Part shown: positions 24,001 to 27,000 of the stretch, piece by piece | Numbering within the stretch: the first letter of the stretch is position 1 | Layout: every line of letters starts with the position of its first letter | Source of the DNA: a virus | Taxonomy: Duplodnaviria > Heunggongvirae > Uroviricota > Caudoviricetes | Length of the DNA: 64,000 nt | IMG/VR virus record: IMGVR_UViG_2880378312_000006 | Strand: one strand, 5' to 3' | Program-made: the position numbers

Positions 24001-27000
24001 CTGTTACGATAATGCTAGGGCGGAAAGTTTCTTCCACTCACTAAAAGTCGAATGCATTTACGGCTAATATTTTATGAGTCGGGAAATAATGCAGACGGCT
24101 GTGTTTAATTAGATCTAGTGTGATTACAATCGGTGGTGCCGACACAGTACTTGTGGCTGTCTCAGCACGGAACTGTTTTGAAAAACAGAACCTTGATTAG
24201 GGCTGTGTCCACATTACGTAGGTAGGATCACCCCACAGGCACCACATGTCATGCATGGATTAGGATTGAATGATAAATCGTAAAGAAAACTGCAACACCT
24301 CGCGTGTAGCACCTGGTTAGCGAACTTTCGAAAGTACGAGTATTGTATGATTTCCAGCAGTTATCAATTTTACGTATTAATCAGTGAATCAACAACTCGT
24401 CAGCAGACTCTCTTTGCTGTTGAATTTTTTGGAACGTGTATAGGGCAGAAATTTTTGTTTTGGGACATGGTTGGGACGCCGTAGTACATACGAACTCTGC
24501 CGAATAACGTATGATATTATTTTTTAATCTCTTGGAATACATTATAGAAACAGAATGCTCTTGGGCGATTTTTAGTGATTGTTTAAATAGCCCTGTCATG
24601 CAGTTAAAGTGGCGGGCATCCTCTTCAAGGATGGTGATCCTCAACCGCACCCATTTAGGATGCGACTATTGTGGTAGAACAATGTAAACCATAATTAATC
24701 TGCGTGCGGATACATGCTTCATAGATAGGATATTCTGGTTTGGGTTGTGAATGTGTTGGTCATCGAGTGGACAATAAGGTAAGAGGAGTAACTCCTGCAA
24801 AACAAAAAAAGAGTTCAACAAAATCAATCAGTTAAAAACACGAGAGATCTGTATAAAAAAGCATCGTAAATTCTGTATTTTTCCTTTAAATATAATATGT
24901 TATTGAGTTTTGTAAAATCTACCAGTGTGGTACATGGATATCGATACCACGGCTAAGTATAAATCTGGTGTTACTACCGTGAAAGACTCGGTACGACTGG
25001 ATCCGTGGGTGTTTATGTTCTCCGCAGGATATCGTTTTTAATTTTCTCTGCAAAACCTCTGCAAAACCCCTCTGCAAAACTGGTCATCAAATGACCAGTT
25101 TTTTCCATTCCTTACCGCGTGCGTCGTTGTAAATATCGATCATTTTTTGATTCGAATGGCCTAGCAAAATTTTGGTATCAACCCCCTGCTCTCTGAACAA
25201 TCGCTCTGATAAAGATCTCTGCTCATGGAAAGAGGGAGGGGTGCCATTAGCACGCCAGTTGTAATCCACAGAATCCCGGGCTTTTTTAAATGCAACGGTT
25301 AATGTTGCTGGCTTAACCATCCCGCCGCGCTTAGCTGTCCCTTTCGCGTGATGGTGGTGCAATAGCCACGGACTAAGAACGCAATCGCGGCAGGATGACA
25401 CCACATCATCCAGGGTGAGATTTAATTTATCGCAACGCAGAGCCAGAGGGATGGCAATCCGGGTTCCTGTTTTTTGCCGTTCGACATGAAGATAACCATC
25501 CCGGATATCCGAAAATTGCATTTTGCAAATATCTGAAAGGCGCTGGCCTGTCATCAGTGCCAGCAGCATACCGCGCTGTAAAAAGTAACCATCCTTTTCC
25601 GCTGCGTTATAAATCATCATCCACTCATCAAAAGTCAGTCGCTGTCTTGATATCCGTACCTGCGGTTTTTTTGCAGATTCTGCAGGGTTAAAGCCTGGCG
25701 GGACATCGCCCGTTTGCTGAGCTTCCCGGAAAACATCGATCAGTACTTTCCTGAAAATTTGTCCCATTCTGTTATGTCCTCTGGCCTTGTACTCTTCCAG
25801 TACTGATACCACATCTTTTACGGTTATGGCATCTAACGGTCTGGTGCCAAAACGTTCATCAAATACCCTGAGAGGGGCCGCTTTCTGTTTCAGCGTGTTG
25901 AGTTTGATCTCGCCGTTTTCATATCTTTCCTGTTGAATTTTTCTGTAATTATTCAGAAAAATGGTAACGGTTGATGAACCGCCGGTATCACTAATAATTT
26001 TCTCCTGCAGACTGAGCATTTGTTCCATTTGCTGCCGGGCAAGACGGCTGTTCGCTTCTGCTGCAATAGTTTCTGCCAGTTTCTGGTCAATACTGCCGAG
26101 ACCGTGATTTTTGCCTGTTATGGGATGCCTGTAACGCCAGTAAACTTTGTTATTTCTTTTGTCAAAATACGGAGATAATCCCGGAACATCGGTTTTATAT
26201 TTTCGCGGGCGCGCCATCTTCCAGTATCCTCTTCAAAGCAGGGTGATCTGTGGCGATCACCTCCGGCTTGTTTACCATTCCGACAAAGCGAGCTTGCGGA
26301 TCCACTCGCCAGCGTCTTCCAACTTTTTTGGGGAGAGGAAATATCATTCCGGCTTTAGCGTATTTACTTAACGTACTCGGAGTAGGGACCGGTTCACTGA
26401 ATTCCTCTTTTGCCCACTCAGTGAGCAGAATAAGTCTTGCCATGAGCGTCGTTCGCTAATCATGGTCGCCGCCACTATAGCTGGTGGGCAACGACCGGGG
26501 TTGAACATTAAAAATCAGCCTGATTCGGGATCAGTTTTTGCCAGATAGCTGAAACGTATTTTGCCTGGTAACGAGCGTCATCCAGCGCATTGTGGCGCTC
26601 ACCTTCGAATGGGATAGCAGTTCTGGCATCGAAGTCTATGGCTTTCCCCAGCTCAACGATTGTGCGTACATCGCGATCGTTGTAGTAACGCCACGGGCAG
26701 GGGATCCCCTGCCGTTCGTATGAACGGCGCAAAATCGTGTTGTCGAAGTTGGCTCCATTTCCCCAGACCTGAACAAAAAATTCACCGGAGTTTTCGTCGA
26801 TAAATTCCCGCAATTGTAACAGTGCATCATCTAACGGGATTTCATCGGTCATAATGGCAGATTGCGCTTCGCGTGATTGCTTAAGCCACCATTTAATGGT
26901 GTCCCGATCAATGACTCCGCCAGCAGTTTCCAGATCGATAGTCTTACTAAATTCCGGTCCCATATCTCCGGTTTGCGGATCGAAAAATATTGCACCTATT

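Follow-up and report, generated by a model that had tools for sequence, protein, structure and literature searches.

The viral sequence IMGVR_UViG_2880378312_000006 (Duplodnaviria; Heunggongvirae; Uroviricota; Caudoviricetes), of which a stretch of 64,000 nucleotides was analysed (hereafter the window), contains an intact integrase gene, int, and directly beyond its stop codon three short direct repeats and a palindrome, whose likely roles in site-specific recombination and transcription are the subject of this study. The int gene (25087..26217, minus strand) encodes a lambda-family heterobivalent tyrosine integrase (Int) of 376 residues, as assigned by Pfam and by homology to lambda Int. Its start is overlapped by xis (26195..26443, minus strand), coding for an excisionase of 82 residues (Pfam Exc PF07825, 1.3e-7) that is annotated as such in RefSeq and in the records of PPompW prophages. 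Beyond the other end of int, the segment 25046-25104 reads CTCTGCAAAAC CTCTGCAAAAC cc CTCTGCAAAAC TGGTCAT caa ATGACCAG TTTTTT. A preliminary description of this DNA had pointed to three 11-bp direct repeats beyond int, and exact copies indeed start at 25046, 25057 and 25070 on the plus strand, the dinucleotide CC before the third copy giving a copy spacing of 11 and then 13, so that the array is not strictly head to tail. Tandem Repeats Finder (TRF) reports three copies with a period of 11 or 13, and 6 nt separate the end of the third copy from the int stop codon. When both strands of the window are searched with up to one mismatch allowed, CTCTGCAAAAC yields three matches, all of them exact and all at the array. 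For an 11-mer to recur exactly at one given offset the probability is 4^-11 (~2.4e-7), and by arithmetic estimate the expectation for two adjacent such copies in 64 kb is <1e-7. Array and palindrome are thus confirmed as real and far beyond chance.

The integrase next to the array has the domain composition of lambda Int. Residues 2-71 match the Pfam domain PF09003 Arm-DNA-bind_1 (E 7e-22) and the catalytic domain matches Phage_integrase (PF00589, E 1.1e-15). Over its full length the protein is 36% identical to the integrases of lambda and HK022, and it is 50% identical to the icd-type integrase of phage 1H12, while its top matches in the PDB are full-length matches to lambda Int structures (5J0N, 1Z1B, 1Z1G; E ~4e-55). 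The catalytic residues R226, K249, H331, R334, H354 and Y363, which we take to correspond to R212, K235, H308, R311, H333 and Y342 of lambda Int, are invariant in an alignment with the integrases of lambda, 1H12 and 813R8. Since the protein contains an arm-binding domain, arm-type sites must exist somewhere.

The window is 100% identical to Escherichia coli O157:H7 strains, e.g. FRIK2455, FRIK2069 and FRIK944, and its int-xis-exo region is 99.6% identical to that of the PPompW prophages, representing the identical element family described by Nakamura and colleagues (Nakamura et al., 2021, PLoS Pathog, PMC8112680). That study described tandem PPompW prophages in O157:H7 FRIK2069, defined a duplicated attachment (att) sequence of 121 bp with 81% identity to ompW, and showed excision by amplifying and sequencing the attP junction of the excised, circularised PPompW after treatment with mitomycin C. 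As this junction attests, the PPompW recombination system is active. PPompW/Sp10-type prophages are present in ~44% of complete E. coli genomes (PMC8112680). The GenBank records of PPompW prophages annotate the 121-bp duplication at both prophage ends, equivalent to window positions 24923-25043, and in LC567822 it is labelled 'duplication due to insertion of PPompW'.

To locate the core, the window junction was aligned with PPompW attL, PPompW attR and the empty K-12 ompW site. The alignment yielded a block of 28 bp common to junction, attL, attR and attB (CAGTGTGGTACATGGATATCGATACCAC, 24923..24950). This block, which contains the inverted repeat GTGGTA-12 nt-TACCAC, is the sole stretch identical in all four sequences, with divergence between phage and host on both flanks. 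Through the middle of the 121-bp segment K-12 attB resembles attR and not attL, and because attB matches attR to the right of the block, the exchange must fall within the left 28 bp. We infer from these alignments that the crossover takes place in a block much shorter than the 121-bp duplication. In the strain 2012C-4502 attL and attR differ at the positions equivalent to 24942 and 24948, which tentatively puts strand exchange to the left of 24942. The block lies 96-123 bp to the left of the first repeat, within the roughly 150 bp in which the core had been expected. The same description had taken the junction for the attL of one prophage (prophage B), an assignment that did not hold. The DNA to the left of 24923 is not ompW; it is the right end, the P arm, of a second PPompW-type prophage, and for this reason the junction is attP-like (P-O-P') and joins two PPompW-type prophages arranged in tandem at ompW, in agreement with the tandem PPompWs reported for FRIK2069. 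A tRNA gene as integration target was considered and dismissed, since none lies near the site and the target is ompW. To the right of the block, positions 24951..25043 on the plus strand constitute a phage-borne surrogate 3' end of ompW, ending in a TAA stop codon (25041-25043). Its middle part has diverged from K-12 ompW with the reading frame kept, and in single lysogens the hybrid ompW is annotated as full length; as far as can be read from the sequence, the surrogate end keeps ompW full length in such lysogens.

The motif is not confined to the P' arm, where the triple beside int occupies 25046-25080, but recurs once in the P arm (24793-24803). This P-arm copy, TCCTGCAAAAC on the plus strand, ~139 bp to the left of the core centre, is predicted to be a P1-like arm-type site and includes the only other exact CTGCAAAAC of the att region (24795-24803). 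An alignment of the P arms of four diverged lineages (window/PPompW, phage 204576, P-EibA and 2012C-4502) revealed that in all of them homology starts exactly at YCTGCAAAAC, the DNA upstream being unrelated, and that this motif is followed by an A-tract and an IHF consensus. In the window the consensus is matched perfectly by AATCAATCAGTTA (WATCAANNNNTTR; 24822..24834, plus strand), a predicted IHF site that the other P arms conserve in the form AATCARNCAGTTA. The IHF consensus has 9 matches window-wide against 2.5 expected by chance, and this is the single match within the att region (24793-25102). No copy of the arm motif was found in the core block (24923-24950), and no repeated motif other than the arm motif in the ~290-bp att region. 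Two further sequences were examined as related sites and rejected. An inverted copy at 24907-24917 with 3 mismatches (GTTTTGTAAAA), a potential P2-like site, is not conserved in other P arms, and an exact CTGCAAAAC on the minus strand at 14401-14409 is attributed to chance, as ~0.5 exact 9-mers are expected per 128 kb (both strands).

The repeats could have been missing from the att regions of relatives that use the same integrase, a comparison suggested in the preliminary description, and they were found in all close relatives and also in distant ones. The diverged ompW prophages of E. coli keep the repeats despite many substitutions and a 15-bp indel in their surrogate ompW segment. Of the copies at 25046..25056, 25057..25067 and 25070..25080, the first is deleted in E. 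coli JNEC-KY208, which has only two. For a more distant survey one genome per species was scanned, which gave 80 homologous int loci from Enterobacterales, including Kluyvera, Raoultella, Pantoea, Yersinia, Serratia, Xenorhabdus, Providencia, Proteus, Klebsiella and other genera, with integrases 47-99% identical. At 65 of the 80 loci 2-5 tandem copies of a motif, mostly 3, are present within 130 nt past the int stop codon. The motifs fall into four classes, CTGCAAAA (28 loci), CCCCAAAA (23 loci), TATCAAAA (12 loci) and CAGTAAAA (2 loci), and the 11+13 spacing is found in 25/28, 13/23, 9/12 and 2/2 of these loci, respectively. Each class has its own signature in the N-terminal domain of Int. 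Integrases of the same class may be as little as 45% identical outside the N-terminal domain and still have the motif in common, and between the TATC and CAGT classes identity is ~70% outside this domain and 46-55% inside it, and the motifs differ. The residues that discriminate the classes are, in the numbering of the window Int, 7, 13, 15, 17, 19, 21 and 28. In these sequence comparisons the motif class tracks the N-terminal domain rather than the rest of the protein. Two loci without an array near int (L042 and L091) have the array predicted from their N-terminal domain 0.6-1.3 kb downstream, pointing to inserted DNA between int and the P' arm. At two further loci, in Kluyvera georgiana (L015) and Enterobacter bugandensis (L019), Int is 66-68% identical to that of the window and has an N-terminal domain of the CTGCAAAA type; no array is present within 130 nt of the int stop codon, and a single CTGCAAAA is found ~1.5 kb away at the edge of the fetched flank, a pattern that may reflect another insertion between int and the P' arm. 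The array of Yersinia pekkanenii (L027) has five arm-site copies. The ompW prophage of strain 2012C-4502 has as a peculiarity of its own a full-length gene annotated 'porin OmpC' amid the tail gene cluster (L094, 25236-26399).

The anatomy that emerges resembles that of lambda. Lambda attP has, apart from its core C-O-C', the arm-type sites P'1-P'3 bound by the N-terminal domain of Int, the sites P1 and P2, and the IHF sites H1, H2 and H'. In the lambda record the tandem arm sites CAGGTCACTAT, CAGTCAAAAT and AAAATCATTAT are read at 27784-27814 and abut and overlap the int stop codon; their designation as P'1-P'3 is taken by us from the established lambda literature. The feature 'int 4' of the lambda RefSeq record NC_001416.1 (27814-27854) lies inside the int coding sequence and does not coincide with P'1-P'3 as read here, so that this annotation appears to be offset. 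The two systems share 1) three tandem direct sites of ~10-11 bp with a pitch of about one helical turn abutting the int stop codon; 2) a homologous Int with an arm-binding domain and a xis gene overlapping the int start; 3) a distal site in the same orientation, marking the outer boundary of the P arm at about -140, with an IHF consensus just inside of it, lambda P1 being located at a similar distance from the lambda core according to the RefSeq features 'int 1' and the recombination site; and 4) the CAAAAY half of the window motif, which is present in lambda P'2 (CAGTCAAAAT). They differ in the motif itself, YCTGCAAAAC in the window and C/AAGTCACTAT in lambda, in the spacing of the copies (11+13 as compared to ~10+10) and in the distance of the P' array from the core (~110-140 bp as compared to ~55-85 bp). 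This greater distance in the window is explained by the 93-bp replacement 3' end of ompW that sits between core and arm. Furthermore, the window lacks a clear P2 site and a P'-side match to the IHF consensus, its core is located inside the protein-coding ompW, whereas lambda attB is located in the gal-bio intergenic region, and its hairpin overlaps the third P' site and the int stop codon.

Outside the ompW group, the sequenced phage integrases nearest to that of the window are those of the phage 21/e14-type icd modules, represented by Escherichia phage 1H12. There the crossover likewise falls in a host gene for which the phage provides a surrogate 3' end, and three tandem repeats spaced 12+13 precede the int stop codon. 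Differences concern the target, which is icd, the arm motif, the N-terminal domain of Int (PNLY.KLDKR..YWQY as compared to PGLS.Y.D.R..YWRY in the window) and the terminator hairpin of the surrogate gene, which lies between gene end and array and not over the int stop. More precisely, TTCCCCAAAAC is found three times beside int of 1H12, and TTCCCCAAAAT is present ~350 bp away, past an open reading frame of ~150 bp that holds the icd-like 3' end. Because this P-arm copy matches the P' motif of 1H12 itself, the two arms co-vary.

How could the repeats act in recombination? Position next to int, the arm-binding domain, the additional copy in the P arm, conservation and co-variation with the N-terminal domain together give comparative support to the preliminary description, which had considered the repeats as candidate Int sites in the P' arm, and arm-type sites are strongly supported by the sequence comparisons. 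In analogy to lambda, Int and IHF would bind at the predicted sites. Int would act as a heterobivalent protein, contacting the three repeats and the distal P-arm copy (24793-24803) with its N-terminal domain (residues ~1-70), while its C-terminal domains would bind and cut the core (24923-24950) inside ompW. Bending of the DNA by IHF at the consensus (24822-24834) could allow a single Int molecule to bridge arm and core, and the outcome would be an intasome of ~290 bp (24793-25080). We consider it very probable that the CTCTGCAAAAC repeats are the P'1-P'3 arm-type sites of a PPompW/Sp10-type lambdoid prophage, this judgement applying jointly to the sites, to the mechanism just outlined and to the termination role of the palindrome discussed below.

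Several observations count against this interpretation and temper it. The IHF consensus has no match between core and P' array, although the distance exceeds that of lambda, and no clear second, P2-like copy of the motif was found in the att region, where a single clear P-arm copy is seen. Excision of lambda requires P2. A P2-like candidate is the weak but conserved TTCAACAAAAT (24814-24824), which has 8/11 matches and overlaps the IHF consensus. In addition, the motif classes coincide with clades of Int, so that the co-variation is in part shared ancestry, and the searchable literature yielded no paper naming the repeats. Neither the arm sites nor the 28-bp crossover block nor the hairpin was found described there, older papers on phage 21 and e14 being outside its coverage. 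The searches turned up the PPompW paper and a paper on the O157 prophage pool, the motif strings matched unrelated primers, and the searched text of PMC8112680 does not mention 'arm-type', 'core sequence' or 'direct repeat'.

It could be imagined that the repeats bind another protein, be it Xis, another directionality or regulatory factor of the phage that co-evolves with Int, or a host factor. The xis gene sits beside int and would co-segregate with the Int clades, such that comparative data alone cannot formally separate the two proteins, and the A-rich CAAAA core of the motif resembles A-tract bending sequences. In lambda, however, the triple next to int is bound by the N-terminal domain of Int and the Xis sites lie in the P arm, as is well established, and the array of the window is homologous in position to the lambda triple. 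Moreover, the class of the motif follows the N-terminal domain even where the remainder of Int is discordant, and an Int with an arm domain needs arm sites, for which the att region offers no other repeated motif. Binding of a protein other than Int is on these grounds quite improbable. The notion that the repeats are a functionless minisatellite generated by neutral replication slippage between the surrogate ompW end and int, for which the variable copy number would speak (2 in JNEC-KY208 and 4-5 in some relatives, e.g. Y. pekkanenii), has a vanishingly small probability and on sequence grounds is effectively refuted by conservation, as many genera of Enterobacterales preserve both the motif and the 11+13 spacing within unrelated flanking DNA, an extra copy is found at the P-arm boundary and the motif class tracks the N-terminal domain of Int.

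Adjoining the third arm-type site is the palindrome AAAACTGGTCAT-CAA-ATGACCAGTTTT (25076..25102), which is terminator-like in both directions. The palindrome, its overlap with the int stop codon and the T-run behind it were as originally noted; the stem, given there as 8 bp, actually comprises 12 bp, since the last 5 nt of the third repeat (25070..25080), AAAAC, are drawn into it as the hairpin base, along with four T's of the run of six. The predicted folding energy is -13.9 kcal/mol on the plus strand and -14.5 kcal/mol on the minus strand, corresponding to z values of about -5.6 and -5.9 relative to shuffled sequences. The int stop codon TGA (TCA on the plus strand, 25087-25089) falls into the loop and the 3' arm. 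Transcripts of the plus (ompW) strand would have U6 directly behind the 8-bp core stem, and those of the minus (int) strand U4 and then GCAG behind this stem. The hairpin is located between two convergent 3' ends, those of the surrogate ompW (stop at 25041-43, plus strand) and of int (stop at 25087-89, minus strand), and a transcript that passes the surrogate ompW stop would meet its first hairpin with a U-run here. It is invariant in the ompW prophages of E. coli and kept in ompW-site relatives from E. albertii, Kluyvera and Raoultella, the change in the Raoultella relative being confined to the loop. Of the 65 related loci, 51 have a terminator-like hairpin between the end of the surrogate target gene and the array. 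The loci at ompW, those of E. albertii, Kluyvera, Raoultella and the window, alone lack such a hairpin and have theirs over the int stop. The 51 include two ompW-site loci (L016 and L017) in which a weak G-T-containing stem within the ompW coding sequence was called, which we take as a false positive.

Judged from these features, the palindrome is most likely a bidirectional intrinsic terminator. It would end the hybrid ompW transcript arriving from the left, thereby replacing the native terminator displaced by integration, and would probably also end int transcripts arriving from the right. That it serves ompW, be it in addition or mainly, is most plausible because the T-run trails the hairpin on the plus strand, in the direction of ompW transcription. 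A number of points argue against a terminator. The stem has just 4 G-C pairs, and a generic scan for terminators and promoters of the region 24300-25400 found nothing above the expectation from shuffled sequences and missed the palindrome, probably since the extension of the stem consumes the T-run. The U-run of the int strand is short, at 4 nt, and a ribosome at the stop codon would cover the hairpin. Compensatory changes in the stem, which would be proof of selection on pairing, were not seen among the relatives compared. Finally, the piece of ompW at the window junction is a 3' fragment only, and a role as ompW terminator would on that account be played only at the true attL of the prophage array or in single lysogens.

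Alternatively, the palindrome could be a dyad bound by a protein, similar to an operator or a core-type site, or could stabilise the 3' end of the int mRNA, and not be the ompW terminator. Perfect dyads of 8 bp around a 3-bp spacer are typical targets of dimeric DNA-binding proteins, the overlap with the third P' site could couple its occupancy to Int binding, the G-C content of the stem is only moderate, and the generic scan made no terminator call here. The sequence is, however, unlike the inverted repeat GTGGTA/TACCAC of the core, the pairing is extended by the A4 and T6 tracts on either side, as is classic for the layout of a bidirectional terminator, and the distribution of the hairpin is complementary to that of the target-gene terminators of other lineages, which makes a protein-binding or stabilising function unlikely.

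The preliminary description had offered two roles for the palindrome, terminator or sib-like element, and of these the first stands while the second does not. Sib of lambda lies beyond the crossover and is separated from int by integration. A sib-like retroregulator in the window would be a site for RNase III or another processing activity that destabilises read-through int mRNA, and expression of int would differ between phage and prophage states. A stable hairpin at the extreme 3' end of int and on the int strand (-14.5 kcal/mol) would suit such a function, and lambda sib/tI, too, forms a hairpin past the 3' end of int on the same strand. However, the window hairpin is situated between the core (24923-24950) and the integrase gene, hence on the int side of the crossover, and is thus linked to int in the phage as well as in the prophage state. 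Its stem of 12 bp falls far short of the extended structure in read-through transcripts that RNase III is known to cut at lambda sib, and, unlike sib/tI, the hairpin forms equally on both strands and is restricted to the ompW-site lineage, whereas other lineages place a hairpin past the end of the target gene, which fits a target-gene terminator better. Rfam gave no match either; at a permissive threshold the region 24300-25400 returned only one spurious hit, to the eukaryotic long non-coding RNA NRON (18 bits as compared to a gathering threshold of 50). Retroregulation of this kind is accordingly highly improbable.

The window contains a second att region, which accounts for the surroundings of the rejected 9-mer at 14401-14409. 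Positions 14339-14567 turned out to hold a complete att fossil of the lambda/HK022 type with an arm motif of its own, situated beside a degraded integrase gene (~14564-15490, minus strand). By sequence reading it comprises a P1 site (CAGGTCACTAAT, 14339-50), a match to the IHF consensus (14357-69, minus strand), an inverted P2-like TGTGACT (14373-79) and the tandem triple AAGTCATTAT, GGTCAAAAT and AAAATCATTAT (14537-67), the last site of which overlaps the stop codon of the pseudo-integrase. The fossil is attP-like, because both arms are present, and the layout of the triple beside the integrase gene matches that of lambda and that of the array at the intact int. It is located in the effector-rich end of the left prophage, with more matches to the IHF consensus nearby (13940, 13943 and 14516).

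The window has some further repeats and genes of note. Arrays of 10-bp repeats at 32866-32911 and 33146-33228, composed of ~4.5 copies of GTCACGACAT and ~4.8 copies of GTCACGACGA together with ACAGAT repeats, surround the 3' end of a gene of the right-hand prophage for a DnaC-like ATP-binding replication protein, and by their sequence look like the iterons of replication origins. Four copies of a 21-bp repeat (TGTTCCGTTTCTGGCTCGTTC, 27367-27452) lie within the gene for a RecE-like exonuclease of 814 residues on the minus strand, where they presumably are a coding repeat. The right-hand prophage also carries tandem genes for tRNA-Met (CAT) and tRNA-Arg (TCT) at 41322-41574.

What does the assignment of the repeats add to the biology of these prophages? 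The 121-bp att sequence and the tandem layout were already published (PMC8112680), and the lambda paradigm is confirmed and unchanged. The arm-site finding is unsurprising in this respect, and useful for annotation and engineering of PPompW prophages, as it yields the full att anatomy of the PPompW/Sp10 type with a P1-like site, an IHF site, the 28-bp crossover block, the surrogate ompW end, P'1-3 and the terminator-like hairpin. Prophages of this type carry type III effector loci and are landing pads for Stx phages. Knowledge of the arm sites would help to predict which integrase excises which prophages in tandem or nested arrangements, and would allow the design of minimal attP substrates as well as swaps of N-terminal domains and arm sites among the four specificity classes.

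The most interesting by-product is the family-wide pattern in which the 11+13 scaffold stays fixed while the arm sites fall into four classes that track the N-terminal domain of Int. It is conceivable, though to us still rather doubtful, that the family has split into at least four orthogonal arm specificities, YCTGCAAAAC, YCCCCAAAAC, TTATCAAAAC and YCAGTAAAAT, while the scaffold of three P' sites spaced 11+13 and one distal P site stayed fixed, with residues 7, 13, 15, 17, 19, 21 and 28 of the N-terminal domain setting the specificity. If this were true, the arm-site code could be used for building orthogonal integrases, and in the ompW lineage, where P'3 shares 5 bp with the terminator stem, occupancy by Int might modulate termination of ompW and int transcripts. 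Such a swappable code could also stop co-resident lambdoid prophages, as in O157:H7-like strains, from interfering with each other in integration and excision.

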